Source: Bilabrum cf. latius | Lineage: Eukaryota | Length of the DNA: 64,000 bases | Direction of reading: 5' to 3' | NCBI GenBank assembly: GCA_965178125.1 | Contig: OZ237751.1 | Span: 868,001 to 932,000, forward strand | In this document: piece by piece, positions 37,344-62,840 of the stretch | Numbering within the stretch: the stretch's first letter is position 1 | Layout: each line of letters opens with the position of its first letter | Translations under genes and position numbers: made by a program | The notes under the pieces: generated by a model | Told to the model about the DNA's origin: nothing | Seen by the model: the letters and a program-made list of their open reading frames with translations, nothing else | Databases searched by the model: none

Positions 37344-37664
37344 TGGGCTCACTCGGCCCAGACTCCTCCAACCAGACACGCTATATCAACCCAACATTCC
37401 CACTCAATCACATCTCCTCGCCAACACCCCCCCAGCGCCCGTCTCGCGCGCTTCCCTCTGCGGCCCTTCCCGTGGCCACCTCGTCGACGTCGCCCTACCC
37501 GACATCGTCCCACCTGTTGTCTGATGATTCCCCTTTTCGAGGCGCTAATGGTACATCCGGCGCCTGGGAGCAGTGATTGCTGGCAGGGGTCAGGCTCGAC
37601 CCTGCCCAGCACTTGTTCCCTCGGGCCCCCAACCTGATGGTCAGGTACCCTCAGGACTCCCCAC
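37344..37664 (+). repeat. 321-bp direct repeat, copy 1
   Basis: Identical to 39176-39496 by eye. Confidence 0.93.
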
Positions 37665-39003: not shown

Positions 39004-39175
39004 AAAATAAAAATAAAAATAAAAATCGCGCTCGGCCTCGGGAAATCCTCCCGAAGTGACTGAGCGGTCACGCTGGTTGATACACGCCGCGCATGGTCGG
39101 TGTAGCGGATCCTCGCAGCCCACTCGTCACGGTCGCAGGTCTGATTAATCACCAGTAGACGCTACCGTAGTCCCA
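39004..39175 (-). mobile_element. ~170-bp element made of the joined 5' and 3' termini of the neighbouring retrotransposon, with an (ATTTTT)n tail
   Basis: 39102-39175 matches 51001-51074, and 39017-39105 matches 41867-41955. The halves overlap at GTAG/CTAC. The tail is longer here than at 41867. Confidence 0.8.
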
Positions 39176-39496
39176 TGGGCTCACTCGGCCCAGACTCCTC
39201 CAACCAGACACGCTATATCAACCCAACATTCCCACTCAATCACATCTCCTCGCCAACACCCCCCCAGCGCCCGTCTCGCGCGCTTCCCTCTGCGGCCCTT
39301 CCCGTGGCCACCTCGTCGACGTCGCCCTACCCGACATCGTCCCACCTGTTGTCTGATGATTCCCCTTTTCGAGGCGCTAATGGTACATCCGGCGCCTGGG
39401 AGCAGTGATTGCTGGCAGGGGTCAGGCTCGACCCTGCCCAGCACTTGTTCCCTCGGGCCCCCAACCTGATGGTCAGGTACCCTCAGGACTCCCCAC
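39176..39496 (+). repeat. 321-bp direct repeat, copy 2 (abuts the short retro-element)
   Basis: Identical to 37344-37664; offset 1832 bp. Confidence 0.93.
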
Positions 39497-40069: not shown

Positions 40070-41450
40070 ACCCGGCAGCCTTGAGGTGACAAGCAAGATG
40101 AGCACTGGTCAGCAAGGAAACAGGTGCTCACGCCACAACGCGCCATCCTACTTCACAGCAAGCACAGCCTACCCCACCCACAAACACATGCAGGCGAAAG
40201 ACTCATGACAAGCTCAAAGAGCACGCGCCTCCTCCGACGGCCGCGCTCTCCCTCGGCCACAGCCACCCGCTCCTCCTGCCCAGCTCCCCTTTCAAACATG
40301 GGGACAGCATACAAGCGACATCGCAGGGCCACCGCCACACCGGCAGCCTTGAGATGACAAGCAAGATGCGCACTGGTCAGCAAGGAAACAGGCGCTCACA
40401 CCACAACGCGCCATCCTACTCCACAGCAAGCACAGCCTACCCCACACACAAACACATGCAGGCGACAGACTCATGACAAGCTCAAAGAGCACGCGCCTCC
40501 TCCGACGGCCGCGCTCTCCCTCGGCCACAGCCACCCGCTCCTCCTGCCCAGCTCCCCTTTCAAACATGGGGACAGCATACAAGCGACATCGCAGGGCCAC
40601 CGCCACACCGGCAGCCTTGAGACGACAAGCAAGATGCGCACTGGTCAGCAAGGAAACAGGCGCTCACACCACAACGCGCCATCCTACTCCACAGCAAGCA
40701 CAGCCTATCCCACACACAAACACATGCAGGCGAAAGACTCATGACAAGCTCAAAGAGCACGCGCCTCCTCCGACGGCCGCTCTCTCCCTCGGCCACAGCC
40801 ACCCGCTCCTCCTGCCCAGCTCCCCTTTCAAACATGGGGACAGCATACAAGCGACATCGCAGGGCCACCGCCACACCGGCAGCCTTGAGATGACAAGCAA
40901 GATGCGCACTGGTCTGCAAGGAAACAGGCGCTCACACCACAACGCGCCATCCTACTCCAAAGCAAGCACAGCCTATCCCACACACAAACACATGCAGGCG
41001 ACAGACTCATGACAAGCTCAAAGAGCACGCGCCTCCTCCGACGGCCGCGCTCTCCCTCGGCCACAGCCACCCGCTCCTCCTGCCCAGCTCCCCTTTCAAA
41101 CATGGGGACAGCATACAAGCGACATCGCAGGGCCACCGCCACACCGGCAGCCTTGAGATGACAAGCAAGATGCGCACTGGTCTGCAAGGAAACAGGCGCT
41201 CGCACCACAACGCGCCATCCTACTCCAAAGCAAGCACAGCCTACCCCACACACAAACACATGCAGGCGAAAGACTCATGACAAGCTCAAAGAGCACGCGC
41301 CTCCTCCGACGGCCGCTCTCTCCCTCGGCCACAGCCACCCGCTCCTCCTGCCCAGCTCCCCTTTCAAACATGGGGACAGCATACAAGCGACATCGCAGGG
41401 CCACCGGCCCACCGGCAGCCTTGAGATGACAAGCAAGATGCGTACTGGTC
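40070..41450. repeat. 268-bp tandem satellite, ~5.2 copies
   Basis: ttgagatgacaagcaagatg recurs at ~40081, 40349, 40617, 40885, 41153 and 41421. The period is not a multiple of 3. Confidence 0.95.
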
Positions 41451-41866: not shown

Positions 41867-44800
41867 AAATAAAAATCGCGCTCGGCCTCGGGAAATCCTC
41901 CCGAAGTGACTGAGCGGTCACGCTGGTTGATACACGCCGCGCATGGTCGGTGTAGAGAGAGAGAGAGAAAATAGAGTTTTCGCACGCAATTCAATACCAG
42001 AGACAATCCGAGGACTGCCACCAAAGTAACGCGCACCTTAACAGGGGACCCAGCTGTACCCGCGTTGGCGGAGCCAGTCAGGACCTGAAAAGGCCTCTGA
42101 AGAAATAGTTGGTCTGGTTAAGACCGATACATGCCTAGGACCCGTGTCCTAAGCGCACCGCGTTGAGATCTCCTGGGAGTCAGACCCAGTCGAACGTCCG
42201 CAGTGAGGGAGCATGCGCGAGGAAGGCCTGGCGAGGCGTGAGGCGTTCAGCCTCTCGCCACCAGACCGCCACATAGTCCGCCTCTAGGACTTGTTGCCTG
42301 CTCCAGATCCGGGAGCGTGCTAGCCTTGCCGTTCCCTTCGCCCAGATGCGTTCTAGCACCTGAAGCTCCTTGCTGAGGGCGCAACGGCCCAGCGTTCCTG
42401 TCATCCACTCTCCGATGAACTAGTTCTCGGAGGGATTCAGTATGTGTCCGAGCGGGTGGGCTCGGATTGCAAGGTCTCGGGCTGTTGGGCTGCCCGAGCT
42501 GAGTTGTTCAGCTACGCACAGTTGGCAGGACTACAACCCCTCGATGGCTCGTCCGAAGCTCTCATTGGCCCTCTGCTACAAGCGTCGGATTGCACGTCGG
42601 CACCGTTCTTGGAGTTGTTCGAGGGTGCCTTGGACGATAGAGAGCTCCAAGGAGTCTGCGTCCCCTCGGTGTTCCTGTGTCAGCACCTGCTCCGTTTTGA
42701 CGTGTTCCATCCATAGTGCTCTCCCCACTGCCGTGGGTGCCCAGGGTACGTCCGTGTGCGTGGCTTCCGCGCGCATCATTTCGGCCTGTACCGAGCGTTC
42801 TCCTCTGTGGTGCATGGTCCCTTCCCGAGGGTAACGCCCAGTGAGCCATCGTAGGATGAGGCGGCCGTCTCGGCCTCGCCAGGTGCTCCGTGCTATCGCC
42901 GGCATGGCCGAAGGGCCGAGGATCCGGGAATTGTCCAAACCGATGCAGCTCTGTAGGTATTTCATGCCTACAGAGTCCTCGTCAAACTTTGCCCAGGCGT
43001 CTGTCGCTACCGGGTGCATCGTTTCTGCTTCGCGCAGTATACCGGCAGCGTGCGTGCTGGAGCTCGACTTCAGCAGTGCAGTCGCGTCCCGTAGGATATA
43101 CGGGCACAGCCACGAGGTGAACGTTCGTTTCAGCTGCTTGCGGTTCTTGGTGTTGAAGATCATCTGGAAGACGGACTGGTCTCGTGCGCCATGTTGGCAC
43201 CTGTAGACTGCGGCCATGTTCGCCATAGGTCCCTGGGCACTAGGTTCGTGCTTGACCATGTACCACGCGGTTAGCTGCATGTGGGCAGGCGTGTCTCCGC
43301 TCAGCAGCACCAGTGAGCAGCCGTACGCCTGTGAGACAGCTCTGGCCATCGCGTCGGCCGGCCAGACCAGCGCCCTGACCGTGTCCTTCGGCAGGAAACG
43401 GCCACCTCCTTTCTTAGGAAGTCGGGGGGCTGCTTCGACCAGGGCGGCCCTGGCACAGTCTAGGACCTCGTCGACAATGTTCAAAGCTGCCTTGTTCCAG
43501 ACTATACCTGGTACGTAGGTGCATTTCACTGTCTTGCGTTTTAGCTCCTGCTCGAAGCCTGCTGGTGCCGCTGAGAGGTGGAGGTCTTGCAGCACCGTCC
43601 CGTAGACTGCACTGTACAGGATCGAGGACAGCTGTGCAAGGCTCCAGTCAGAGTTCACGGCTGCTTGGCAGATGTCCGCAATGCTTCGTCTTGCCTTGCC
43701 GGCTTGCCTCTCCAAGTGTTTCACTGGGTCCAGGACGTGGAGCTGTCTAGTACTTCCGTCGGCCATTTTGACCGGTGCCCGTCTGGTGTGTAGACGGAAG
43801 CCGAGGTAGTCGTACTTGTGGACCAGTCGGATTGGCTCCAGTGGTGCCGTGGCTAGAGTGCCAGGAAGTTGCTCTTGGATCCTGAGATTGAGCTCCTCTG
43901 GGGTGAATGCAACTGCACGTCCGCTTTCCACGTCGTCGTCAGTTGCTTCGAACGCCTCACGGGTCAGTCCGGTCGCCATCACAGCTGTCTTGCTCGTGTA
44001 GCCATTGCTGACTGCTCTTACGCCCAACTCATGGCCAGACTCATGGTGTCCAATGGAGAGCACTGCTACAGCCGTCAGCGAGCCGCTCTTGCACAACATA
44101 GTGACGCAGGTGTCGTCCGCGTACAGCGTCTGTGGCTCCTTCTGTGCGATGTCCCAATCGGCTGTCAGTGGTGCCGCTTGCGGTCCTGCGCACACCTGCC
44201 TGACGTACTCGTTCGCAGGTACCATTGATACCGCGAAGCCATCTGGGGAGATGGGATCTCCCTGGCATGTCCCCTTTCCTCGCTCGAATGGTTCCGATCG
44301 GGTGTTGCTTGGGCGGTGGTACACCTCCGCTTTAGCTTTCATCCTATTGACGAATGCACTCGAAGCGGTCGCGCTCAGTCCAGCCTTCTCTAGCGTGTAC
44401 CGCATGATAGGCCATTGGACTCGGTCGAATGCTGCTTTCAAGTCTCCGAACAGGAGCACGAGGCCCTGCTTCCCCGCGGTGAAGGTCTGCTGCAGGATCT
44501 TCAGGATTGCGATCACTCGGTCACGGCGCAGCGTGAAGCCGAACTGCGAGGCTCCTTTCGTTTGGCGTTGAGCCATGACTTCCTGGCAGTTGCCCAGCAG
44601 GATGATGCCCAATACCTTTGCAATCACGTCTGCGTACTAGATGCATCTGTAGTCACTGCATCGGAAGTCACGGTCGTCCGGCTTGCCTTTGAAGGCTGGT
44701 GCAATGAAAGTGCGCAAGAGGGTCAGCGGGTACTATCCGCACACCATTGCGCAATTGTGGATAGCTTGAAGGGCCTTGAGGAGTGTCAGAGGGTACTTGC

Positions 44801-47800
44801 GTTCTCCGTCGGCGAAATCGAATGTGAGTCTGATTGCGCGTGTTGGCACCCCGCTCGGCCCCGTAGCCTTTCCGGACTTCAACTACTTGATTGCAGTCGA
44901 GATGTGTTCCTCGGCAGCGTCATCAGTCACCAGCATGCCGATTTTCGGGGATGTTGGCATGTGTTGGCCCAGGACCTCGATGAATCTTGAGAGACCCTCA
45001 TCAGTGGACGTGTCCACTGTGTTGGCCGTTGCGTTGGTAGCGCTACTGGAGTAGTATGCCGCGTGGGCGTCCACTGCCTCCTAGGCATTGGAGGTCCGTG
45101 TCCCGTCTTCGCGGTCCACCATTGCAATAGCTCGTTGCTTTGATCTTCTGGCCCCGAGTTGGCTCGATATCGTGCGGTACGCCTCGCGGGCAGGTAGGAC
45201 CTTCAGAGCTTGTTGGAGTGCGTGGGCATCGCAGCGGATACGATCTCTGGTGAGACGTGTCACTGATATCGTGTCACTTCCTGCAGCTGCAACTACTCGT
45301 TGAAGCACCATCTTGTTCGCGAGGTTGCTCGGTTGTAGGTCTGCGGGGGCCAGGGAGGACAGTGCAGTCGGGAGCAGATGCTTGCCCCAATCGCAATTGG
45401 TCGCTACCCTAGCCTGTACCCGTCGTCGCAGTTTGCTGATCCTTTTGATCATGGCATTGGCCTCTGGGCACTTGCCAGACCCAATCTCCCGTATTGACGT
45501 CTCGCGCCTGTCTGCGTGCTTGCTTTTGATCTTACGCAGCAGGGAGGCAGCTGTGTCCCGGATGCAGACAGTCTCGGTCAGAAGGGATGCGTCCTTGTGT
45601 CGCTGGAGTCTTGCTCTTTGGGCCCTTTTTACCATGCGAGAGATCTTCGCACGGTGCTGGAGGCGGCTGCGTGGGGCTGCTTGTTGGCGCTGGGCTGGTC
45701 CAACCGCGGCCTCGCAGGCTTTGGAGTCACAGTCTGCCAGCGTGGAGACCAGATGTTCCAGTACTGTCGTGGCTTGGCCAAGGATGCTGGCCTTTTCATC
45801 TCCTCCCGCTCCCGAGTCTTCACCTAGTGTCAGGGCTGCTGTGCTCGCCTGCTTGCTCAGCTCCATCAGCTATGGCTATTCGGCCAGCAACTGTGCCATC
45901 TTCCTGCGGTATCGGCGGACCTGGGCTTTGGTACGTGGTCTCCGTAGCTTGTCTGGCGCCGTGTCTAGGGTAGCACTTGGATCGTTGTAGACTTGTGACC
46001 TGGTAGTCTCTACCCTCATGGCTACGGGTGAGTGATCCTAAGATCCGGGATTTCGAAGGACTGCACCTCCTGTCCAGAGCGCTGACCCAGCGAGGCCCAC
46101 GTCTAGGCAATTACCTCCGCCATGTGTTGGCATCCACGGGGTCCGAAGGCTCAGACACGGTTCACCGTCCTCCCTGGTGGGGGCGTCCTCCATGATGTCC
46201 GCTTCTCGGTGCGTGTTCAGGTCGCCAATCAAGACGGTCTGATCCAGGTCAAACTCGAACCTTTGCCCATTGCTTGTAGTCCAACCTGTTTGCATGCACC
46301 TAAGTAGGCGCTTATAGTCCCCGCGATGCTCGCCGTCGAGGGGGTTGTAGCATCCAACTGCGTGAACTGTGCGGCTCCCTGCGACTGTCACATTGACGAT
46401 GAGGCAGTCCCGGATGTCCTGGGGCATATCTGCTGGCTGAATGGGGCAGAACTTGGTCATTAGTCGTGAGTTTGTGTTCCAGACCGCCGCAACCCCATGA
46501 GTGCCTCCTTCCGTGGGTGTTAGCCACACGCCTCTGTACGTCAGGTTTGGCACTGCAAGTGGCAGTAGCTTCTGGTCCATGGACGAGTCAGAGCTTCGGC
46601 CGTACTCCGTCATGAACAGCAAGTCAGGGGCTTGCGTTAGTTGGAGTGCACGCTCGATGGTACTCAGTTTCCTCGACTTGTTGACATTCAGGTGGCCGCA
46701 GCGGAATTCTTGGGGGCGATGTGCCGCTTCCCAGGTAGTGGTCCAGTGCTTGGCAAGAGTCATTTCGTTCTCAGGAGTCATCTACTTGTGTGAGATGGCA
46801 CGGACTGTCTAGGCTGGGTCATCTCGGGCTTCTATCTCATGTCGCCGGTACTCTCGGTGTTCCCTGATGCGTCGTGATGGTGTAATGGTCCGTCTTGTCC
46901 CCGCGTATCCGACTGTGGACCGGTTCAGGTAGTCGCGGTTGCCGATCGCCGCTGTCTCCGGCCGACCTCGGCGGTCAGAGGAGAAAGCTGGCACCTCCAG
47001 TGTGCCGTTCTTACATTGTCTGTATAGTTCTCTGTCGTGCTAGTCCACGAGCTCGGACTCGCTGCCCTCACAAAGGCTCTTGAACAGGCTCTCCGAGGGG
47101 AACATGTCGTATGCCACTCTTGGTAGTTCCCGTCCGGCAATCTTGTCGAATGATCCTGCGTTGATCGACTTGGCCAGGGCTGCACGCTGCGCCTTCGAAG
47201 GGCTGCCCCAGAATCCTACTGCTGCGATGAACTTGTGTCCAAGACGTGGGCCTGGAGCTTTGTCGAACTTCGCCGGTGCGTAGGAGCCCAGGGTTAGACG
47301 TCGGAGTGTATTCGCAGAGATGTCCTCCCTGGTACCGTTTGCTACGCCGTCGACGTACAGGTATGGAGTCCTCTGTTCGCTGGCCATGGCCGTCGGCGAG
47401 GCCTTCATCGTGATGATCGAAGCGGCGTGGTCGATGCTGAGCAGGAGGACTCGAGAGGGAAGCTTCAGGTCAGGACCGTCGATGGCCCTTCTCATGCTGT
47501 GTAGGAGGCTGGATACGCCCATGTCTGGGCTGGCCACCATTGGTCTGCACCACGTGTGGTCGTATCCATCCGCCGAGGCAAGGCGGGCCACTGCTGTCAG
47601 CATCCTCCCAATGGTGGTGCACCTATTTGCCGAAACGATGCAGTTGTCCGAGTCCTACAGGCGGCATGCCTACTGCATTGAGAGGGGGACAGCGCTGACG
47701 ACCTGAAGGGCAAGCGTATGACACTGTTTAGCTGGGAGCCTGTACGATCCGACGACATGGTCTCCGGAGCTCTACCAATTCAGGAGGGCCTCTCCAGACG

Positions 47801-50800
47801 GGATGGGGCCCCCGTTGAGCTCGGCCATCGTCTCCACTGCAGACTTCATGTCCTCATCGGATGGGTGCTGGCTCGCCAGGGTGTCTTCCGCCTGTTGCAG
47901 CCTTTTCTGCCACGTTGTAGTTGGTGCCCAAAGTTCTGCACTTGACGCTGGGACAGGCGGTGCGTCGTCGCGTGTCAGGGCCACTGGTTCGTGCGGGAGG
48001 TCGAGCTCAAGTCCGTGTCTTGCGTAATCCAGAGCAGTTGAGTCTTGGGCAATGCACGCGGCCGAGGGTTTGCTCAGCAATATCCGGGGCATCGTTCGAG
48101 CGTTGACCAGCGCCTGAGGTCCTCTACGTGGCTAAACTGATGTTGTCTGCATTCCCATGAGGAAGTAGTGACCTCCAGTGGTATCAGTCCCATCGAGAGT
48201 CTGGGCACGCATGGCTACTGCTGTCGTCATCCTGGCGGGCGTGTGTAACCGCTGGGTGACTAATGGTCGGGCGAGGTATAGTGTTGCCTTGGCGGTACCC
48301 ACTGTCAACATAGGGATGTGTACTCCGTGGACTGCCGCTACGTGTCCCAACACACACTCAGCTGGTGGCCAGTAGTGCGAACTGCGCCACCATGGGATGC
48401 ACAGGGGTGCTACCTCCGATCCAGTCGTCGTCGTCCCGGCCATGAAAGACAGGCTGGCGTTGAAGTGTGCCTTCATCCACTGGAGTGTGTTGCCCGGGAG
48501 TGAGGCAGTAACTTCACTGCTGAAGAGGAACTTGCCTGGGACGTAGTCCGGCTCAATCTTCGTGATCCTGACGAAGTTACCAATGGCACTCTCCATGATT
48601 GCTAGAGTAAGCACCACAAGATCGCGTTCCAGATGCTGTAACGATGAGTTCTCTTCGCGGTCTTCCGCTGGGCCGAGGCTTTGTAGGATCTCTTTGGTCT
48701 TGTCTTCGTCCAGCTCTCGAGTCGAAACAGCGTCCGCGAGTTGCTTAATCTTGTCTTGTGGGTAGCCCTGCCGGGCCGCGTACAAGGACAGACATTGGGG
48801 TGCATACGGGTGTGCCCTCATGATGCCTCGCAACAGTGGGAGAGTGTCGTGATGCTCTGCCGTGGTGGGAGTGCGTACCTCGCCTCCATCACCGGTCTCC
48901 TACTCAGCGGCGTCTCCAGCCCCTGCTACCGCGTGTTCTGCCGCTGCTCCTCCTGTGGCTGCGTTTGATGCGGTGGTTGTGGTCCGTTCATGGGCGATGT
49001 GTGCTTTGCATGATTGGACGATTGAACTGACGAAGGCAGGGACGTGACTTGACTGGACCCCCACAAGTGTGTGGATGGAGTCCAGCCAACATAGGCCGTT
49101 GGTGCACGTCTTGGTCCTCCGGGATGACAATTTACTCGTCGGGATGTCAGTGGTGAGGGCCTGGATGCTGGAGGGGTTGGTGGCGAATGCATCGGGATCC
49201 TTGTTGCAGTTCGCCATCATGTCTGTCACCGTGTAGAGTTGAGGAGTGGTTCTTACGATCGGTCTTGCTTGGTCCCTGGTTGCCTGCGTCCCACCTTGCT
49301 GTGCTTGCCGCCGTGAAGGTCGTTGAGTCTTGGGCTGAGGGGGCTGGGCTGTCTTCTGGTTGCTGCGTGCTTGGCGCTGGCTCTGGGAGCGCCGCTGTTT
49401 ACCTCCCTTGGTCGACTTGGTGCAGTGTGCCCGAAATAGTGCATGTGTCCTAGGTGGAAGGTAGCCTGCCTTAACAGCCTGGCAGAATTCCGAGTCGGTC
49501 AGCTTCTCCGAGTTCCAAGTCCCGACCAAGTTGTGGTCGTTGCGGTGTCGCATGCCCTTCTCCTTCACTGCGGCTTTCAGCGTGGCGGGTAGTTTCTCAA
49601 TCAGCGGGGTCTTAGGTGGCAGCATTCCGTATGCTGCTGCCTTGAGGATCGCCTTGGTGTCTGGGTACTTCTCCGACTTCCAAGCTGCTAGCGGGTTTGA
49701 GCAGTGGCGAAATCCTTGCTTCTCAAGATTCATCCTCGTCTACGCATTTGGTGTCCGCTTCTCCAGTTGCAATAGAGATTTCCTCAGTTGTGAGGTCTAC
49801 TGAGGGGTGTTGCTTCGGCCTTTGTTCGTCGCCCTTGGTGAGGCAGTCCTGCCGGGCCCGCGTGAACTTGCCTGTTGCAGACTAGATGGTGCTGCTGAGG
49901 TCTTGGGCTTTGGCTTCTGCTGTTCTTTGCGTCGTTTCGCTGCTTGGCCGCGTTTACTGGCTGTTAGCCAACCATCAGCTGGAGACGAGGGCGACTCGTC
50001 GCCGCTTTCAACCGGTTCTACGATTTGAACGCCAGATTGGAGCTGGCGTCCGAACTGATGGTATCCCATTGGGGGCAGCCCGATGAACACACTACCTCCG
50101 TGGCTGGTATTGCCATGGTTGGTGTTCCCAGAGAGTTCGGGGTTCGCCTGCTGGTTCTGAGGAGGTGGGGTTGTCGCGGGCATCACCGCTGCTGTCGGTG
50201 CTGCCTGTGCCACCAGTGCTGGTGCAGGTGGTGCTGGTGCAGGTGGTGCAGGTGGTGCAGGTGGTGCAGGTGGTGCAGCTGGTGCTGCTGGTACTGCCGG
50301 TGCTGCTAGTACTGCTGGTGCTGCTGGTGCTGGTGAAGCCTCCGGGGAAGCTGATGCGGTTGGCCGCGTGCCAGGCGGGTTATCGGTGGTCTGTTCGGCG
50401 CGCTCTACCGCAGCAGTGCCCGTCGAGTTCACGGGCTGAGCATCTGCATTGGTAGTCTAGTGGTCTAGTGGCTGGGCCGGTGCCGTCATCTTGTGCGTGG
50501 CCACCCTTCGGCGCTTGTTCATCTTGGACTCATAGTACGTGAGCGCCAGATCTGCGATCCAGATCCAGAAGAAAACGAAGCCCGCGACCAGGGCTGTGCC
50601 GGTAAGCCCGTACATTAGAACTCTTCCCATAAATCCTAGATCGCCCGAGATGATCGTCCAGGTCTGGTGATCGCCATGGATGTGCATCGGCGAATTCAAG
50701 TTGTGTCTGGTCCAGTCCTCCCGGTAGTGCGAAGGTTCAGCGTTGCGATGGTCGCGCCAGCGCCTTTCACGAAAGGTGGTTTCTTCTTCTTGCATCGTAT

Positions 50801-51074
50801 TGGGGGTATCCGGTGCTGGGGCTCGGTTCCAAGTGGGTTCCGTGTGCACCGGGTTTGAACAGTGGGATTGCTGGGAGAGTGGCTACATCTCTTGCTCTAG
50901 GGTGCTTGACGCTCCCAGTACCGACAAAGCCCCGACTATCAGCGCTATTGATGCCCCTTTTGGGCATTTCAGCAAAACAGCCCCCATAGGAGCCTAAAGG
51001 GTAGCGGATCCTCGCAGCCCACTCGTCACGGTCGCAGGTCTGATTAATCACCAGTAGACGCTACCGTAGTCCCA
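41867..51074 (-). mobile_element. Full-length APE-type non-LTR retrotransposon (~9.2 kb)
   Basis: Contains an APE+RT ORF. Both termini are duplicated in the 39004-39175 element. (TC)n and (ATTTTT) tracts lie at the 3' end. No clear flanking TSD was seen. Confidence 0.9.
42180..50987 (-). CDS. Single ~2935-aa retrotransposon polyprotein: signal-like N-terminus/TM helix, Pro-Ala linker, putative cysteine protease, AP endonuclease, reverse transcriptase, C-terminal CxxC
   Basis: ATG 50987 to TGA 42180 in one frame with ~22 TAGs and no TAA/TGA. APE motifs: GHLNVN, LLFMTE, VLIGDLNTH, NCLD, DHSPV. RT motifs: AIK.LKSGKATGPSG, QFGF, DLKAAFDRV, GTCQGDPISP, LYADD, YLG. Confidence 0.9.
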
Positions 51075-51129
51075 CGTTTGCTGCAATATCAGAGGCTTAC
51101 CGACACAACCGAGACACGCTAGTATTTAA

Positions 51130-54100
51130 ATGTAGTACTTGCTTCGATTTCCAATCATACAGAGGAGTCTCCCGCCATTGTAGAGCATTTTGCCGTACTT
51201 GCTATCCACGGATGGACACGACGACATCCACAAGTTCACACTGAAAGAAGAGGGCATGCTCACTCAATTGGCAGATTTAATGACTGGCTATGATAAACTT
51301 TTGCGAACGCCAATCACTCAAGACACAGTGGACTTCTTGTGTCAAAAGCTTCTACGATCGGCATGTCCGAGGCACCTTGTTCTCGACATGATTCGCACTG
51401 TGGGACTTGTACCACGTGCAGCGGTGCATCTGTAGAAGTATATATCTGTGCTCCTTGTACAGGCTGTGCGTTTGTTGCAGACAGGAGAGTGCAGTGTGGG
51501 AATCCGGCGTGTTGGCTTTGAGCTGGCCGGGTCCATTCTGGCTGGTTGCCTGGACAAGCTACTGCTTTTTGAAGGCAGTGCAGAAGTGGAACATGCACCG
51601 GCTGCCCTTCAATCTGAGCTCACGCCTTACAAATTCGCCGAACTGACCGTTCAAGCGTCCGGCAGCGGAACCGCGACATCAGCAGCAGGGTCCGCTGAAT
51701 CTAGATCCGAGATCGGATTCCGTCCATCCGCTGCGAGCAGCTCGAGTGGCGCTGCTACCGGAGGGGCTGCCCCACCATAGGCCTCTCCGGTGTCTGCATT
51801 GTCCTCCGGCCCTCCTGAGGCCGCCCATCATAGCACCTTGCCTGTTCGCGTCATTGAAGCCGCGGGCTCTGTGCTGGCAGCGGCAGGCCCATCCGATGCC
51901 ACGCCCGACCGCTAGCTGCAGCAGGCAGCCGCGATGCTGCTGGCCACCGTGGCCTGGTGCGTGGGGGAGGTGGTGCAGGCTTCTGATGGCGAGGAGGTGG
52001 GCAAAGGAGCAAAGGTGGGCAAAGGAGCAAAGGTTGTAGGAGGGGGTGCATCGGTTGCACTGGTGCGCGCTGTATCATCGGGGCTGCAGGCCATGCGGGA
52101 AGCGCCTGCAACGGACCACCGTGCTGTGAATATCGTGCGGATGTTGATGAAGGCGCTAGGCACGGTGTGCTACTGGTCTCCCGATGCCAGGGAATATGCA
52201 AACCACGATGAACGCATATCATCACTGCTATATAAGGACGATGAGGACGACCCGCAAGTCCTCAGCGACCCTGGCGATGTTGCACCTGCGGCAAGCAGCA
52301 CTGAGGTGATGCATTCACGTTTGGTTGCACCCGTTGCGGTGTTTGTTCGGGGCGTGCTGGCAGGGATTTGGATAGGAGAAACCTCGGCGAAAGGTGCAGG
52401 TTCTGACGCTGACGCTGACACTGACGCTGTCCCTGTAGCATATTCTGATGCTGCAGAGCCGCAGCTGCCCGCAGACTTAGGGCAGCATGCATCAGCGCAT
52501 TCCACAGCAGATGCAGTCTAGGCACATTCGCGCTCATCCTAGGCCGCAGGGCAGTAGACCGCCGTGGACTGTGCGGGTCTGAACATGAGGAACAGCATCA
52601 CTGGCTATCAGGAGGCAGCCGGGAGCCAAGACCTGGCCGGGTATGAGGGCGTTGGCGGCCTAACGGACAGCCCCCCACCAGCTGCATCAGGCGCAGGCAG
52701 TTCCGATCATTCAAGCGCAAAGTAGTCAGGCATGCATCAGGAAGAGGGGTGCAAGGACCACCAGCGCGCCTTCGAGCTCGCTAGGCTTACCATCGCAAAG
52801 AGCATCGCCGAGGAGCGCGAGCGGCTGCGAGCGATCGAGGCCGTGTGTGACGAGTTCCGACACGATGCTGTTGAAGCAGCGCAGCAGATGCCAGCTCTCC
52901 TTGGGTTGGTTAGGACGCCTACCCCCTTCTGTGGTGCTGACTGCGAGACTGGTACGACTGCGAGCGAATCTTCAGGTATTGCGCCTGGTGCAAGGGACTC
53001 ATCGAAAGCAGCAGACTTAGTCGTCCCGGACTCGTCCGGTGCTACTATCCTGATTGATGCCGGCGGCATAGCAGGCGGCGCCAAGGCCATCCACGCCAAG
53101 CACGGCCTCTTCCTCAAGACACCCGAGTCTGACAGCATCTACGGCAGCGATGTCATGGCGGCAAAGGTCATGAAGTTGGAGATGAAGGCAGCCAGGTGGG
53201 TGCACGAAATGGACTCGATCCACGCCAATGGCGTTCTGACCACCGTGGTGGATGTACCGTACGAGCGCAAGGATGGGAGAGGCAGGGGCGTGCAGCGTGT
53301 GCAGGTGCAGGCCCGTGTGCCGGTGAGCGACGCCACCCTCCGGTACGGGTCATCGGACGGTGGTGTGACGATACACGTGGACAAGGAGCAGGAAGCAGAC
53401 GTAGTAGATAAATTGGCGGATCACTGCAAACTAGCACCACTGGGGCAGGCGGGGTGCAAGCGGGTGGTCGTGCACACTTACGATCGTGTTGGAATGGGTT
53501 CCACTGGCGAGCCCTACAGCTGGCTGGATGACATGAAGCAGATGGGCCACGACATGAGCGAGCTAGAGGAACTGTGCACTCCACCATCGCATGATCACCG
53601 GGAACCATCTTCGAAAGAGGAGATCGCTTTTGGGCTCGGCATTGACTTTAGTCCTGCATGTACCGCGTTTGGCAACCCACACTCTTGTCGAACTATTGAA
53701 CCTGCTACTGCGAAAGAGCATGGGTGGGACGTTGCTGATGGGCTCCTGATTCACAAGCTTCCATTCGACGTGGAGATTCACCAACTGGAGAGCGGCAGCA
53801 GGATCGTGCTCGACACACACCGGCTTCTGCCTCCCGACCTGGCGTGGATTCTTTGGGCTAGGTAGAGCGAAGAATCTAGACCTCGTGTCTGGGCAGTGTA
53901 GACGGAACCGCCAGTGTACTGCAGTGGGCAACTCGATACTCATTTTCCATGGCCTGCAAACTCAAAGAGCTGGCCAGAATCTCTCGCGTAGTCACAAGAC
54001 GAATCTCTTAGCGCATCATTCTGTGGGGCGGTCCATGGCTGGGCCCGAGCCCAAGATCGTCTCGGGCCTGCTTCAAAATGCACACTTCACTCCCTACACC

Positions 54101-57100
54101 GCGGGGCTGGTATCGTGCTGCTGACCTCGGACTGTCCCACCAAGGGTAAGGTGGTGTACGTGGTGTCGTGCCCGCAGTGGTATTGGGGCGATGTGCCGTC
54201 GCTGACGTGCATGATGCCGCCGGAAGCAGCCGGGTATGGTTGTACGGCAACGGACGACGATGCCGAACCAATAAGTAGTGTTAGTCCTGATTGCACGTTG
54301 AGCGCTGGCGCTGACCCAACCCAGAAACATAAGAGAAATCTCGCTGCATGGACGGGTGCTGTCACGTCACCGGACAGGCTAGCACGAGTCTGGGAATCCC
54401 TTCGGAGCTGCATACCAGACATTGGAGTGAAAGCAGAGGATCAAGATGACGACGAAACAGCAGCCGATTCGCATGAGTACGGCGCCACTGGGTTCAGGTG
54501 GTCGTCGCTGCACAATATTCGAAGATCCGCCAAGCGCGTGCTAAGACAGGGTGGTCTTCGATTAAGACACATTGGCATGGTGGCACGGACGCCCAAGGCA
54601 TCAGATAACCCGCATACGCTTCTACATGCACTGGTTGCTTGCGGTAAGACTTGGGATCAGGCCCGACTGATTCCGAGTCGTTCGGGTCCTGGTTTGTGCT
54701 CCCGAGGCACTTCCCTTGAGGCAAGTGCTCGAGTGGAGGCTGAGACGCAACACGCAGCGCCACAGATATAAAGATCTGGGCACTGGAGTTCTGTTGAAAG
54801 GTGGTGCCCACGAATTCTCTGGAATTTACCGACTGTTGGCCACCGACGGGTCCGAAATGCCAACACTCACGCTGCAACTCAACGCCATGCGTACTCGCCT
54901 GCTTAGCGTATCACTCTTAGTGCGAATGTTGGTTTGAACTATTAACGAACTATTGGAGGGCGTACAAAGTGCGGCCGGTAGCGAGTTCCCGGGGTATCTG
55001 AAGTTAACCGCAAAATTTTGACCCGGCTCGTGCCGCATCCGTGACGGCCTGGGAGCCGCAGCCGCAGCCAAGCTTACCTTTTGTGGATGCAAGGAAGCAC
55101 TAGCGGAACCGGAATGCGCGTATAAGTCATGCGAGACCGCGGACCAGGCACAGCAACGCCGGCGAGATCATTTTCTCGTCAGCATGGCTCCCACTCTAGT
55201 TCTCTTCACAGAAATGAGCTCGAAACCACGGCCACAGGCGGTAGCAGCCATGGTCGACTCTTTCCCTAAGCTAGGGCGGTCCGCCGAAGGCGACGAGTCG
55301 CCACTGATGGTGCGGGTGTTCCGGTGGACCATGCTCGACGGCACGCCAACAGGTGCGCAGCTAGCGTGCGACCTCCTCCAGATGACGGCGATGCGGCACC
55401 TCATCAGCCTGCAGAACGCGGCAATAACTGGGGCAGTGGATACGGCGGCAGCCACCGGGTGGCCGAGGCGAACGGCACCCACGGAGTAGGCGCCCGGCGG
55501 GCCTGACGTGTCGAGCACGGACGCCGTAGAGCTGGAGGACATCAAACCGTAGTGCTGGAGGAGGCCCAGCTCGTGAAGTATCTGGTGGCTGCCAGCCTCG
55601 AGCTCTCCGCATCGTGGAACTTCTCAATCGCGCAGGAGAAGGCGGAGGCAGCGGCGCCCGGTGCAGGAAGTGGCGCAAGGAGAGTGCTCCGACGTCGCCG
55701 CGCCACTACTCCGGTAGCGGCAGCAGTGGGGTACCCTCGGGCGCTGAGGTTGTAGCTGGATCAAGCAGGAGAGCGTGACCTACACCCGTGCGCCAGATTC
55801 CGCTGCTGAACGTGCCAAGGCGACGCTGGCTGCCAGACGTGGGGCCAGCCGCATCGCCGCGACACAAGTACTTGGCCGGGGCGGGGCCTCAGGTAGTGCT
55901 TCTTCGTCATCGTCTTCCAGCTCCGTTCCTAGAAGGGATATAGCCGACAGTAGGGGGAAAGATGGGCCTGGACTCACACTCCTACCGTCGAGCGGGTCCC
56001 ACGCTGGGGTGGCTGTGCGGCACTTACGGGCCCCGCCCAGCTCTGCTTTGCGTACAACCGATCAACTCTCGGGAGACCTATTGGCTGCCTCTCCTTCAGC
56101 CCCGGATGTGCGTCTGCCCTCTTATAGGGCAGATCTGCCGGGGCCTCGGGGGTTGACGCCGTAGGCTCTATTCAACGAGGGCTCGCCGGTGGGAAACAGG
56201 CAGAGGTATCTGATGGGGATGACGACGAGGGGGCAGCAGACTCTGCGGCTGGTGAGAGCCGAGCACATCGTGGTGTAGACTCTGCGGCTGGTGAGTGCAG
56301 CGCCATCTTGGGTTTACTTGGGATGGCGTGGTCTTGATGGCACCAGCGTGCGCCTGCTGCGGACCGCCGTGCTGTGGATGTCAGCCTGGCGAGCCCTTGG
56401 CGGGTCGCTTTGCGTCATCTAGTAGATCGACTTGGGCTTGATTGGTCTTCAGAACGCCAGTGTGCGCCTGCCATAGACTGTCTTGCTGTGGAGGGCAGCT
56501 TGGCGAGCCGGTGGGAAGGGCACCCACGGAGTGCAGGTGCTCGGCGGGCCTGACGTGTCGGGCTCAAGGCGCAGTCAAGCTGCAGGACGTGCAGACCGTG
56601 GTGATGGAGGAGGCCATACTCGCAAATGATGTAGTGGCCGCCGTCCTCGAGCTTTCCGCAGCGGGGAAATCCTCCATAGCGCAAAAACGAAAGCGGCGGC
56701 AGCAGCGCCCGGTTCAGGAGGGACGCCGACGTGGGCGGGGAGAGTGCTCCGACGTCGCCGGCGCCACTACTCCGGTAGCGGCAGCAGTGGGGTACCCTCG
56801 GGCGCTGAGGTTGTAGCTGGATCAAGCAGGAGAGCATGACCTACACCCGTGAGCCAGATTCCGCTGCTGAACGTGCCAAGGCGACGCTGGCTGCCGGAGG
56901 TGGGGCCAGCCGTATCGCCGCGACACAAGTACTTGGCCGGGGCGGGGCCTCAGGTAGTGCTTCTTCGTCATCGTCTTCCAGCTCCGTTCCTAGAAGGGAT
57001 ATAGCCGACAGTAGGGGGAAAGATGGGCTTGGACCCACACTCCTACCGTCGAGCGGGTCCCACGCTGGGGTGGCTGTGCGGCCCTTACGAGCCCCGCCCA

Positions 57101-60100
57101 GCTCTGCTTTGCGTACAACCGATCAACTCTCGGGAGACCTATTGGCTGCCTCTCCTTCAGCCCCGGATGTGCGTCTGCCCTCTTATAGGGCAGATCTGCC
57201 GGGGCCTCGGGGGTTGACGCCGTAGGCTCTATTCAACGAGGGCTCGCCGGTGGGAAACAGGCAGAGGTATCTGATGGGGATGACGACGAGGGGGCAGCAG
57301 ACTCTGCGGCTGGTGAGAGCCGAGCACATCGTGGTGTAGACTCTGCGGCTGGTGAGTGCAGCGCCATCTTGGGTTTACTTGGGAGGACGTGGTCTTGATG
57401 GCACCAGCGTGCGCCTGCTGCGGACCGCCGTGCTGTGGATGTCAGCCTGGCGAGCCCTTGGCGGGTCGCTTTGCGTCATCTAGTAGATCGACTTGGGCTT
57501 GATTGGTCTTCAGAACGCCAGTGTGCGCCTGCCATAGACTGTCTAGGGTACCCACGGAGTGCGGGCGCCCGGCGGGCCTGACGTGTCGGGCACACGCAGT
57601 AAAGCTGGAGGACGCGCAAACCGGAGTGATAGAGGAGGCCACACTCACGACGGGGCTGGTGGCCGCCGCGCTCGAGGCCTCCGTAGCAGCAGTGTTATAC
57701 CGTTGAGCGCTGAGGTTGTAGCTGGATCAAGCAGGAGAGCGTGACCTACACCCGTGAGCCAGATTCCGCTGCTGAACGTGCCAAGGCGACGCTGGCTGCC
57801 AGACGTGGGGCCAGCCGCATCGCCGCGACACAAGTACTTGGCCGGGGCGGGGCCTCAGGTAATGCTTCTTCGTCATCGTCTTCCAGCTCCGTTCCTAGAA
57901 GGGATATAGCCGACAGTAGGGGGAAAGATGGGCTTGGACCCACACTCCTACCGTCGAGCGGGTCCCACGCTGGGGTGGCTGTGCGGCACTTACGAGCCCC
58001 GCCCAGCTCTGCTTTGCGTACAACCGATCAACTCTCGGGAGACCTATTGGCTGCCTCTCCTTCAGCCCCGGGTGTGCGTCTGCCCTCTTATAGGGCAGAT
58101 CTGCCGAGGCCTCGGGGGTTGACGCCGTAGGCTCTATTCGACGAGGGCTCCCCGGTGGGAAACAGGCAGAGGTATCTGATGGGGATGACGACGAGGGGGC
58201 AGCAGACTCTGCGGCTGGTGAGTGCCGAGCACATCGTGGTGCAGACTCAGCGGCTAGTGAGAGCCGAGCACATCGTGGTGCAGGCCCGGCGGCTAGTGAG
58301 AGAAGCGCACATCGGGGTGCAGACTCTGCGGCTGGTGAGAGCCGAGCACATCGTAGTGCAGGCTCGGCGGCTGCTGTGAGCAGCGCGCCTCGCTGTAGAT
58401 GCCAGCTGCCTCTCCTCCCGCTCCGGATGTGCGTCTTGCCCTCTTTAGGGCAGCTCTGCCGAGGCGACTAGGGTTGACGCCGTAGGCTCTATTCAACGAG
58501 GGCTCGCCGGTGGGAAGCAGGCAGAGGTATCTGATGGGGATGACGACGAGGAGACTCTGCGGCTAAGGTGAGCAGAGCATATCGTGGTGCAGGCCCGGCG
58601 GCTGGTGAGAGCAGAGCACATCGTGGTGCAGACTATGAGGCTGGTGAGAGCAGAGCACATCGTGGTGCAGACTCTGCGGCTGCTGTGAGCAGAGCACATC
58701 GTAGTGCAGACTCAGCGGCTGGTGTGAGCAGAGCACATCGTGGTGCAGACTATGAGGCTGGTGAGAGCAGAGCACATCGTGGTGCAGACTCTGCGGCTGC
58801 TGTGAGCAGAGCACATCGTGGTGCGGACTCAGCGGCTGGTGTGAGCAGAGCACATCGTGGTGCAGACTCAGCGGCTGGTGTGAGCAGAGCATTTCGTAGT
58901 GCAGGCTCGGCGGCTGCTGTGAGCAGCGCGCCTCGCTGTAGATGCCAGCTGCCTCTCCTCCCGCTCCGGATGTGCGTCTTGCCCTCTTATAGGGCAGCTC
59001 TGCCGAGGCGACTAGGGTTGACGCCGTAGGCTCTATTCAACGAGGGCTCGCCGGTGGGAAACGGGCAGAGGTATCTGATGGTGATGACGACGAGGAGACT
59101 CTGCGGCTAAGGTGAGCAGAGCACATCGTGGTGCAGGCCCGGCGGCTGGTGAGAGCAGAGCACATCGTGGTGCAGACTCAGCGGCTGGTGTGAGCAGAGC
59201 ACATCGTGGTGCAGACTCTGCGGCTGCTGTGAGCAGAGCACATCGTGGTGCAGGCCCGGCGGCTGGTGAGAGCAGAGCACATCGTGGTGCAGACTCTGCG
59301 GCTGGTGAGAGCCGAGCACATCGTGGTGCAGACTATGAGGCTGGTGAGAGCAGAGCACATCGTGGTGCAGACTCTGAGGCTGGAGGGATCAGAGTGCATT
59401 ATGGGTATACTTGCTCTTGCTGGGGCTTGATGGCGCATGTGCGCGCCTGCCAGTGGCCGCCTTGCTGTCAAAGTCAGCCAGGCGAGCCGGGGTGGGCTGC
59501 TTCGCGTCGGCTGCCACAGAGTTGGGCTTGCTTGGTCTCGATGGCGCTTGGGTGCGCCTGCCATACGCTGCAGTGCGGTTGATGTCAGCCTGGCGAGCCG
59601 GCGCGAGTGGCTTCGCGTCGTCCAGTAGGTAGACTGTTGATAGACTTCGGCCCCAACGGCACCACGATTGCGGAGGCGATCAAGAATCTTGACCGGATCC
59701 CTGCCCATATGGTGCTGCGCATGGAGCGCGGCAATCTCCAGGGCTCCACGCTCAGGTCAACCTTCTCCACGTGTCGAGATATATCGACGTGACGGGCTGC
59801 ATCTCCATCCCCCGACACATCCGGAACGACCAACACGGTGATGGTAGGCAGGGACAAGAGGCTGCACGACGTGGGCAACCGGAAGAAGCGTGCTCCCATC
59901 ATCTAGATGGAGCACCGCAATGGTCACAGACGGCGGGCCCAAGGCGGGCAAACCCGAAGAGATCCTTGCCCTCGAGGCTCCACTAGTGGGCATCGGCGGC
60001 ACGTGTCGCGGCAACGAGCTGCGGTCCCGGACCATGGATGACGCGAGTATGATGTACAAGGGCAAGTGCACATATATGGCCATGTTCTCTCTCTGGAAGA

Positions 60101-62840
60101 CAACAGCTGTAAGGGACACGCTGTAGGCAGTGCTCATCCCAATGGGCCAGACCGCACTGAAGCGACTGGACGAGGTGCATCAGCGAACCACGATCTGGGG
60201 GACATTGCAGTAGACTAGCCGGCTGCGGCGACGACCCTGCTGACTCCAAGACCTATCGGTTCGTGAATTCGGACGCCAAGACAACAAAGCGTTGGTAAGC
60301 AAGCTGGACGACAGCCATCAGGAGGATGATGGAGGCGTACTGCACGGGCACGAGCGAGATCACGGAGTCCTTCAGCACGCACTCTAGGCGAACAGGCAAC
60401 AGTTGCCGCCGTGGGTGTTATGTACAAGCACGCCGACTGGAAGTCGTTGGAGAATGCCGTGTACTGCATGAGCAAGGACCACTTGCCCAAGCTGGCTGTG
60501 GCGTTCAAGAAGGCAGTAGCGGAGCTCTAAGGAATGAGTCAGAATGGCGAGAGGACAACGGACGGGCGCCCCTCCCGTCCGAGTAGCATCAATGTGGTGT
60601 GGGGCTGCCGAGGCGGGCAGCCCTTGGGTGAGGCTGGTGCGGGCCAGCTCACCCCGTCCCCATCGCCGTCTTTCTCAGCAAATACCAACCGGCAGGTTGG
60701 ACAGAGATTAATTATGCCATCGTATTATAACAAATCGGGACCCGGTAAGACTTGGGATCAGGCCCGACTGATTCCGAGTCGTTCGGGTCCTGGTTTGTGC
60801 TCCCGAGGCACTTCCCTTGAGGCAAGTGCTCGAGTGGAGGCTGAGACGCAACACGCAGCGCCACAGATATAAAGATCTGGGCACTGGAGTTCTGTTGAAA
60901 GCCCGCCCACCCGTGAGCTCATGGAGGGTCTACGGCAGGACAGACTGGCTGCGGTGCAGGATGCTACCTGCTGATCCGGCCAACTGGTCCCTGCTTGACA
61001 TGTTTTATGTGTGATTGATATCAAACCTGCCGGCAGGGAGCTCACGTTCCCTGACGACGACCGGGACGTGGTGGTGTGGGGCTGCCGAGGCGGGCAGCCC
61101 TTGGGTGAGGCTGGTGCGGGCCAGCTCACCCCGTCCCCATCGCCGTCTTTCTCAGCAAATACCAACCGGCAGGTTGGACAGAGATTAATTATGCCATCGT
61201 ATTATAACAAATCGGGACCCGGTTTGCCATCAAGCAGCTCAGTGTCTGGACTCGCACTGGATGCGGCTATTCAAGCAGCAGTGAACATCGTGCTCGTATC
61301 AGATCGCAAGGCACCCGGCGAACCGCTGCTGTTGTAGACTCACGTTGCCTGCATGAATGCCCGGGCATTCGCTGCACGAGGTGTCGCCAGCCTGTTCGAG
61401 TTGGGCGAGCCACGCAAGGTACCCCACAGCGAGGTCTAGCAGATCTTGCTGGATGCATACAAAACGCACTTGATTGGGTCTGGTATGTATGGCTGCATCT
61501 CGCAGGGAGGACAATTGTAGAGTAGCGTGGTGGGCAACGCAGAATCAGTGAAGCGAATGGTTCATTCAGAGGCGTTTGAAAAAGCGACCAGCAGCTCCAA
61601 AGCATCATTCGTTTTGACGGAACTGATGGAGGAGCTAGCACATGCTCAAAGGGTACTAGGCTACAATGAGGCATACTTGATGAAGTAGTTTAACGCATGC
61701 TATTGGCAACAAATGTCAATGCACAGCATGTTTCGACGAGCTCTCGTGCGGTCAGTGTCTCTCTCAGAATAGCTGCCTGAACGGTTGCGAATTGGCCTGC
61801 AGCCTCTTGATTTTGCGAGGAGATTTGCTGAATCAGAGTGTCACTAGGCTGCCTTACTAGTTCTGAAAGACATAAGCCAGTCGTGCGGCAGCGAGTCTGC
61901 GTGGGAGCTTCGGTATGAGCTTGTCCTGGCTCACATGCGGTTAGAACAGTTCGATGCAGCTGCTGGGGTGCCTAGCTTTGTTGAGGAAGCGACGATGCCG
62001 CAGAATGCACGCGAACTGCTGTTCATGGTGAAATCGTGGTACTTGCACAGCCTGGCTACTCTATGCTCGGAGCGCGGCCGTCATTGTGCCGTCAGAAGCA
62101 ACTACGTTGACATCTACGAGAGAGGTATAGCAATGGCCGCAGGGTCCCCAGCCGAGGTACCTGTTCTAGTCAGTACCATGCAAGAGTTGTGTCGCGGACT
62201 ATTGCTTGCATACACTGGTTCGTACGGAGATGCAGCTTGGTATTTAGGCGCGGCTTTAGGATCCAATGTTTTGGGCGACTCTGAGCCCAATTTGCAAATG
62301 GATGCGCTGCACGCTAGAGCCGAGTGCTTGTTTCGGCTGGGCCTGCACAGCGATGCAATCCAAGCGTACCACGATACCGACCAGCGTGCTGTCTATCTGC
62401 ACGGATCGCAATCCCCCGAGCGAATTCGAGTTCGGCTCTGGCTGTCAGCGTGCCATCGAAGAATGGGTAACATTCTCGCGGTTGTCGCAGAAGTCCAGGA
62501 CTTCCGAAGTAAGGTCTCATCACGCATGATAGACGGGCGTTTGGACATTCTGGAGCTTCTTCGGGAAGAGTGGCTAGCGCAAGCAGCCTTGGGCGATTTC
62601 GAATAGGCGTACCTTGCGGTCGATCATGTACTCTGTGGGGTTCGAAAACTCTATGGCGAAGATAGCCGGGTGTTTGCCGTCGTATCACTGGATCGGTTTT
62701 TGTATGCGGGCAAGACAGACAGAGAGGATGACGCTGAGAAGTCGCTTGAAGCTGGATTGCCGTGGCTCACAATATGCATGGAAGACTTGGGACTATTGGA
62801 CAGCAGCGACCGCAAGCGGTAGTACTGGATTCCGGATTGA
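51130..62840 (+). CDS. Clu-domain + TPR protein (clustered-mitochondria-like), split at 54645/61224 by a YR element; start codon uncertain
   Basis: ORFs 51190, 51448, 51934, 52732 and 54115 share one frame via TAG. Clu motifs: IAGGAK..HGLFLK, YGSDVMAAK, RYGSSDGG, PFDVEIH..RIVLDTHRLLPP, GLRLRHIG. After removing 54646-61223 the frame continues (TGC GGT|TTG CCA) into helical TPR-like repeats (LGLHSDA, LGDFE[TAG]A) to TGA 62838. Confidence 0.78.
54801..55489 (+). pseudogene. Decayed first ORF (gag-position) of the YR element
   Basis: Protein-like frame (ORFs 54716-54937 and 55184-55489 in the same frame) interrupted by two TGAs. No recognisable domain. Confidence 0.4.
55681..59380. repeat. Internal block duplications (~0.5-1 kb, 3 copies) followed by a 39-bp-type minisatellite array inside the YR element
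   Basis: Near-identical ORFs 55775-56164, 56836-57225 and 57741-58130. The unit gagcagagcacatcgtggtgcagactctgcggctggt is repeated over ~58200-59380 (unit size approximate). Confidence 0.9.
59890..60530 (+). pseudogene. Frameshifted tyrosine recombinase
   Basis: GTCRGNELRSRTMDD (catalytic Arg, ~60007), LWKTT..AVLIP (Lys), FSTHSRRTG (HxxR, ~60380) and ADWKSLENAVYC (W...Tyr, ~60438-60464) occur in order but across different frames. Confidence 0.72.

Follow-up and report, generated by a model that had tools for sequence, protein, structure and literature searches.

The CLU-domain gene and the inserted element

The 64,000-nt stretch of DNA analyzed in this study (positions 868,001 to 932,000 of the forward strand of contig OZ237751.1, assembly GCA_965178125.1, Bilabrum cf. 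latius) is referred to below as the window, and all positions are given in its own numbering. The window carries a gene for a CLU-domain protein that is interrupted by an inserted element of 6,578 bp (54642-61219), which lies inside one long open reading frame (ORF) of the gene and has the same orientation as the latter. The upstream part of the gene occupies 51130-54641 on the + strand. The respective ORF extends to 54771 (51130-54771), the host frame continuing for about 42 codons into the element before it meets TAA at 54769-54771. The downstream part (61224-62840, + strand) comprises 539 codons counted from 61221 and ends with the stop codon at 62838-62840. Deleting the element from the sequence gives one open frame of 1,710 codons, and the resulting empty site reads ...TGCGGTTTG...

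Nine long uninterrupted ORFs are present in the window when TAG is read as a residue. Their 15,316 codons include 127 TAG, no TAA and two TGA, both of the latter being terminal stops. The organism uses TAG as a sense codon, which was translated as Q for convenience and not as a settled residue identity. None of the papers listed for UAG reassignment corresponded to a genome of this type. In the interrupted gene, the upstream half (1,172 codons) contains 12 TAG and neither TAA nor TGA, while the downstream half contains eight TAG, no TAA and TGA only as its terminal stop. A preliminary description of this DNA had noted that the host ORF is free of TAA and TGA on either side of the element, which was confirmed. 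It had also taken the intact ORF as a sign that the gene is rescued, a point that we do not follow. The insertion looks recent and no decay would be expected either way, so that an intact frame cannot separate rescue from a fresh knockout.

Searching Pfam placed a CLU domain (PF13236) at residues 655-770 of the upstream half (36.6 bits against a cut-off of 24, E 5.6e-9). TPR_12 was found in the downstream half at 16.7 bits, under its cut-off of 30.1. The structure model of the downstream half is all-helical and, at a predicted local distance difference test (pLDDT) score of 38.6, was used for its secondary structure alone. The gene thus shares with the CLU/TIF31 "clustered mitochondria" proteins a CLU domain above cut-off and a long, predicted helical C-terminal half, and it is unlike them in that 650 residues of unassigned character precede the CLU domain and the TPR match is below cut-off. 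Word-based searches for host homologues gave 0 matches for residues 600-1172 of the upstream half. The TAG-free stretch 53992-54642, used as a query for empty-site or spliced forms in public assemblies, also gave 0 matches.

The host reads as a GC-rich eukaryote with compact genes. The genes of the window are long, rich in low-complexity sequence and close together, with no visible introns; indeed, no intron was recognisable anywhere in its 64 kb, and tRNA and Rfam scans of the window gave 0 matches. Upstream of the CLU gene, on the opposite strand, lies a 2,955-codon open frame (42180-51047, - strand) with 23 TAG; it includes an RVT_1 domain and has the appearance of an intact retroelement of the non-LTR type (LTR, long terminal repeat). 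A distance of 83 nt separates the upstream end of this retroelement from the point where the interrupted CLU ORF begins, and the upstream region of the CLU gene may therefore have been lost as well.

Regarding the architecture of the inserted element, our analysis revealed two pairs of direct repeats. Repeat A is found at 54642-54800 and again at 60743-60901 (159/159 nt identical), and repeat B at 60594-60746 and again at 61071-61223 (153/153 nt identical). The order along the element is A1-[interior]-B1A2-spacer-B2, with B1 abutting A2. The terminal repeats A and B of the preliminary description are therefore upheld, as split direct repeats of an element inserted in sense inside a coding frame. 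All parts are given on the + strand. The left end, A1 (54642-54800), begins with CGGTAAG and contains a donor-like G/GTAAGA, the GT of which lies at 54644-54645 (the slash marks the predicted cut). It is followed by unique internal sequence (54801-55469), from which a 184-codon ORF with 0 Pfam families (55022-55576) starts; by its position this ORF could be a gag-like ORF1. The interior of the element consists mostly of tandem repeats (55470-59620), comprising three ~1-kb units, spaced at 1061 and 905, together with arrays built from 39-nt units. A broken, putative tyrosine-recombinase gene (59658-60521) comes next. The internal right-end copy B1 (60594-60742) and the internal left-end copy A2 (60743-60901) meet in a joint that equals the right end of the element joined to its left end, i.e., a circle junction. 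A unique spacer of 169 nt (60902-61070) separates A2 from the right end, B2 (61071-61219).

The four letters after B2, CGGT (61220-61223), are the same as those at the host/A1 joint (54642-54645) and at the B1/A2 joint (60743-60746). No target-site duplication was found, the sole shared letters being CGGT, which are also the element's own left end. CGGT is absent after the B end in all three right flanks known from other copies of the element. For this reason, it is read as a microhomology at the crossover with this particular target and not as a duplication.

Affinity and spread of the element family

The recombinase gene was traced through its relatives. A 133-residue piece of it (59842-60240) matched three proteins among 1.84 billion (phmmer). 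P0001 (68 residues) is 100% identical to the piece and is the element itself, P0002 is 40% identical (E 4.4e-7) and P0003 (330 residues) is 34% identical (E 1.7e-4). When P0003 was compared with the window (tblastn), four collinear blocks were obtained with a joint E of 3e-27, lying at 59658-59903 (frame +3), 59890-60186 (frame +1), 60227-60397 (frame +2) and 60372-60521 (frame +3). The first block contains one stop. The gene is thus disrupted by at least three frameshifts and one stop. The blocks show RGNE, HSRR and W...Y where P0003 has ARGNE, HAARR and W...YY.

P0003 itself matches the Pfam family Phage_integrase weakly (E 0.0035, below cut-off). Pfam gave 0 matches on the recombinase pieces of the element, as did a longer search with the recombinase piece and a profile search of the PDB with the profile of P0002-P0004. 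The recombinase fold prediction (pLDDT 46.0) was too poor for fold searching. Relatives of P0003 were found in neither metagenome_contigs nor viral_contigs. A single 46-residue match to P0003 in genome_contigs, on a Lactobacillus contig (L001), was not used. The tyrosine-recombinase assignment, a prediction from sequence, rests on the motifs, on the weak Phage_integrase match and, above all, on the repeat architecture. The collinearity with P0003 supports the earlier designation of the insertion as a tyrosine-recombinase element. Its ORFs had also been described as decayed, and this agrees with a recombinase spread over three frames with one stop and with the lack of a matching reverse transcriptase (RT).

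None of the 14 translations of the element matched RT, RNase H or methyltransferase. Because no RT/RNase H ORF is among them, the element is classified as a putative non-autonomous derivative and not as a complete member of the split-repeat class. It appears to be a new, non-autonomous, Ngaro-like member of the split-repeat tyrosine-recombinase retroelements. The repeat order of Ngaro has been described as A1-[ORFs]-B1A2B2 (PMC8547959), and in Ngaro and VIPER the internal repeats are described as lying downstream of the recombinase domain (PMC4157794). Ngaro elements (DIRS order), e.g., those of Cafeteria burkhardae, share with our element the split-repeat order and the position of the recombinase gene, putative in our element, just upstream of the internal repeats, as far as these descriptions go (PMC4157794; PMC8547959). 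They are also alike in that lengths of ~6-7 kb, tens of copies, possible insertions in genes and deletion derivatives are described (PMC4157794; PMC8547959). Unlike Ngaro, the element lacks an RT/RNase H ORF and carries frameshifts in its recombinase; tandem repeats take up its interior, and A2 and B2 are set apart by a 169-nt spacer. The likeness to Ngaro is one of architecture as described, the sequence relatives found being three metagenome proteins only. Split direct repeats are likewise described for VIPER of the kinetoplastids and for the PAT-like elements, VIPER, like Ngaro, being presented as lacking a methyltransferase (PMC4157794). The likeness to VIPER is thus by description only. 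PAT-like elements carry a methyltransferase domain; none was found in our element, which says little, as its interior is largely replaced.

Concerning other copies, matching sequence was examined in four public runs, all of which look like DNA contigs; no run recorded as RNA was among those listed with it. Flanks of 30 letters each were taken from 19 of 35 loose ends. At least seven distinct sequences precede the start of A and at least three distinct sequences follow the end of B, and the element family therefore sits at several other sites. Words of the element reach 7 to 65x the depth of the host contigs in the four runs; depth is not a copy number, and for this reason several copies are asserted from the distinct flanks only. 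GGTAAG comes directly after six of the seven distinct left flanks, in five cases as CGGTAAG, which shows that the donor-like motif is part of the element. On the other side, the element reads ...GGGACC or ...GGGACCC before each of the three right flanks. A 35-mer of the start of A gave 0 matches in metagenome_contigs and genome_contigs. A 959-nt internal contig (54771-55729) showed 0 differences in all four runs. Together with the identical repeats, this uniformity points to a recent spread of the family, as judged from sequence.

The insertion at the CLU locus was also recovered from these runs. A contig covering 54202-54669 (468 nt, 0 differences), and thus reaching 28 letters into A1, is present in runs X4, X5 and X6, which belong to three studies. 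At the other end, a 3,040-nt contig of X4 begins at 61194, 26 letters within B2, and continues into the host with 0 differences. At 54193, the one difference between runs in the host gene, X4 and X6 have T for G relative to the window (Val to Leu by frame reading), while X5 has the same letter as the window. The insertion allele is thus present on sequences that differ at a nearby position. In X5 and X6, one contig departs from the window sequence after 54231, which may reflect either a structural variant or another locus with a short stretch in common. Parts of the downstream host half lack coverage in X5 and X6, and no conclusion was drawn from these gaps.

In run X6, a contig with a depth of 122 joins 54676 to 60936 with one extra letter. 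The ends of this join are GT..GG, which rules it out as a canonical splice joint. Given that A1 equals A2, the join is read as a putative deletion of ~158 nt, 60777 to 60936, in a subset of copies. None of the joints 54643 to 61156, 54643 to 60679, 60744 to 61156 and 54645 to 61224 was among those listed for the four DNA-like runs; contigs drop rare variants, and this result is uninformative either way.

Splice-like motifs and the fate of the interrupted gene

The ends of the element carry splice-like motifs. A donor-like string, GGTAAGACTT..., begins at 54643 and at 60744, placing GT at 54644 and 60745. It has two matches in the window and none in 100 shuffles. An acceptor-like string, CTTTCTCAG, terminates at 61155 in B2 and at 60678 in B1. 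Joining 54643 directly to 61156 would retain 61156-61221. This keeps the host frame, with the terminal stop only, and adds 66 nt, i.e., 22 codons. The alternative route through a proposed 66-nt mini-exon in B1 (60679-60744) is likewise in frame and open, adding 132 nt or 44 codons. The signals and frames given in the preliminary description, i.e., the G/GTAAG at the start of repeat A, the pyrimidine-rich acceptor at both positions in repeat B, the direct join with its 22 additional residues and the mini-exon route, were all reproduced by sequence and frame checks. In-frame openness as such is unremarkable, since 83 of the 240 GT-AG pairs near both ends are open.

The explanation that we favor, with a probability of about 0.55, is a recent sense insertion of a Ngaro-type, non-autonomous element in the CLU gene, giving a null or leaky allele. 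A circular copy would have integrated via its circle junction (...GGGACC/CGGTAAG...) at a target sharing CGGT, with no target duplication, the family presumably being moved in trans by an autonomous relative. The insertion would have entered, in sense, a loop-like stretch (...C-G-L-P-S-S-S-S...) of the CLU gene and would terminate the host frame 42 codons into A1. The resulting allele would be a recent null, or a strongly reduced one, of a gene that the organism can do without (in culture); CLU genes are non-essential in several model organisms. The donor- and acceptor-like motifs of the element may yield some leaky in-frame message with 22 additional residues. These motifs are real and complete, but we would not call them a rescue device that is proven or has evolved.

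Several observations weigh against this explanation. The 66-nt footprint is a multiple of three. The GT at 54644 is the sole GTAAG among 15 GT near the left end and stands at the very first bases, while the AG at 61155 is the sole one of 16 near the right end with at least 80% pyrimidines upstream (16/19). A yUnAy-like CTCAC (61125-61129) lies 27 nt upstream of the latter. Against background rates taken from the rest of the window (1.5e-4 per nt for strong acceptors and 3.1e-4 per nt for G/GTRAG), the chance of a strong acceptor in the last 225 nt is 3.3%, and that of a strong donor is 0.16% in the first 5 nt and 3.9% in the first 128 nt. The joint chance of such a placement, including 1/3 for a footprint divisible by three, is ~2e-5 to 4e-4 relative to the window background, a value that is post hoc and is to be read with the element strand being several-fold richer in both motifs than that background. 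In addition, the contigs at the host flanks reach 28 and 26 letters into the element, under the 31 required for a bridged junction, as expected of a 31-mer graph that meets a repeat. Finally, the insertion allele occurs in the runs of three studies, two of which differ from the window at 54193. The insertion is therefore not a private event, and such an allele fits tolerance by rescue as well as dispensability of the gene.

The first alternative is an introner-like rescue, which we regard as less likely, though a live rival. Host read-through RNA would be spliced from the A1 donor to the B2 acceptor, or through the B1 mini-exon, removing 6,512 nt and adding 22 or 44 residues in an apparent loop, and the sites would have evolved or been kept because the genome is gene-dense. 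The presence at the element ends of a full donor, a branch-like site, a pyrimidine tract and CAG argues for this route, as do their improbable placement against the background rates, the footprint that is divisible by three and open at the CLU site, and the donor that is element-borne in six of the seven distinct left flanks. Furthermore, an element RNA starting inside A1 would lack the A1 donor, so that only host read-through would be spliced. Against this, the splicing is predicted from motifs in the sequence alone, and the details do not suit a clean or evolved device. The retained 66 nt are open in one of three phases, the two other phases meeting TAA; of a device evolved for masking, one would expect either an open frame in every phase or removal without residue. 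The element interior offers three further strong acceptors (55920, 56981 and 57886, all within the internal repeats, which also contain many GGTGAG donors) and 18 further G/GTRAG donors. Only two of the 648 strong-site paths from 54644 to 61155 are open, and these are the two routes proposed earlier; the nearest strong acceptor would lead to a stop after 78 codons. The predicted intron of 6,512 nt would stand in a window without a visible intron. The element ends do not pair beyond shuffles (duplex -92 against a shuffle mean of -97.7, 155 of 200 shuffles being as good or better), and splicing between the A2 donor and the B2 acceptor would cleave the RNA of the element itself as well, provided that this RNA reaches 61155. 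The interpretation in the preliminary description is thus partly supported: the element type, the sense insertion, the element-borne donor and both in-frame routes hold, and self-masking is a hypothesis.

The comparison with introners is pertinent in this respect. Introners from many transposon orders are on record, the reported sources being terminal inverted repeat, LTR, non-LTR, helitron and Crypton elements, and most are described as non-autonomous (PMC12130899). Like introners, our insertion is non-autonomous, is present in several copies and lies in a coding exon, and it carries a 5' motif at its extreme end and a 3' motif close to the opposite one; at the level of motifs, these are G/GTAAGA at 54644 and, for 61155, CTCAC, 16/19 pyrimidines and CAG. 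The definition of introners rests on many copies annotated as introns or shown to be such, while the element is known here as one in-gene copy, from DNA alone. It also differs in its predicted removal, which would be imprecise (+66 nt), and in its length of 6.5 kb. Neither PMC12130899 nor PMC9860276 contains the terms 'DIRS', 'Ngaro' or 'split direct' in its main text, and no paper pairing 'introner' with DIRS, Ngaro or tyrosine-recombinase terms was among the 15 best-ranked of 352 literature matches. The proposal that this family is the first introner of the DIRS order, in which host read-through and not element RNA is spliced with a footprint divisible by three in an intron-poor host that reads TAG as sense, appears unlikely to us. 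Imprecise removal has parallels elsewhere: in maize Ds/dSpm alleles and in Tc1 of C. elegans, exonic transposons are removed via cryptic splice sites near their ends. Such removal from the mRNA is imprecise and often leaky and gives partly working alleles, resembling the route proposed for our element. Unlike the latter, Ds/dSpm and Tc1 belong to the DNA transposons, and their hosts are rich in introns.

If the splice route is used, tyrosine-recombinase retroelements would join the transposon orders that seed introns, in a lineage with seemingly rare introns and a reassigned stop codon, and the locus would be a clean test case with one gene and two predicted junctions. If it is not used, this would be a commonplace case of a CLU-type gene knocked out recently by a defective mobile element, and the main interest would lie in the new Ngaro-like family and its CGGT-type target joint.

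Split expression of the gene is improbable. In this case a truncated upstream protein would be made, and the downstream half would be translated from a transcript starting in A2 or the spacer, with the ATG at 61191-61193. This codon lies within B2, in frame with the downstream host half; 10 codons separate it from the joint, and frame 0 stays open from 60999 onward. By analogy with LTRs, the A repeat would also be the likely promoter-bearing end in split-repeat elements. However, promoter and transcript are only postulated, and nothing indicates that the halves of a CLU protein work apart.

Very improbable is a rescue at the level of DNA, in which the recombinase of an intact relative would, in some cells, undo the integration by acting on the two CGGT cores and so restore the gene. 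Both ends and the B1-A2 joint have CGGT, and excision would give a circle junction and the empty site; the right flanks of other copies lack CGGT, and the element's own recombinase is broken. Hardly credible, finally, is an assembly artefact in which a repeat misassembly placed the element and the gene is intact: a multi-copy element with repeat ends is a typical cause of misjoins, but the contigs of X4, X5 and X6 that run from the host into the left end, and that of X4 that runs from the right end into the host, match the window throughout.

Other features of the window

Farther upstream, a 6-kb stretch free of long ORFs lies between two divergent genes and contains two repeat structures. These are a 300-nt direct repeat pair (37344-37643 and 39176-39475), 100% identical and 1,832 nt apart, and a five-copy tandem array of a 268-nt unit at 40072-41443. 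Both are probably further mobile elements. Inspection of the ORF lists by eye showed that a peptide stretch, ...GLRQRLLVINQTCDRDEWAARIRY..., is common to 50767-51096 (- strand) and 38685-39239 (- strand). Since it occurs both at the head of the long retroelement next to the CLU gene and in the repeat-rich stretch, the 5' region of that retroelement may be present in a second, partial copy. The window also includes a 1,765-codon ORF at 15704-21001 (- strand), most of which is made up of three long tandem arrays (unit lengths 48, 81 and 96 nt).

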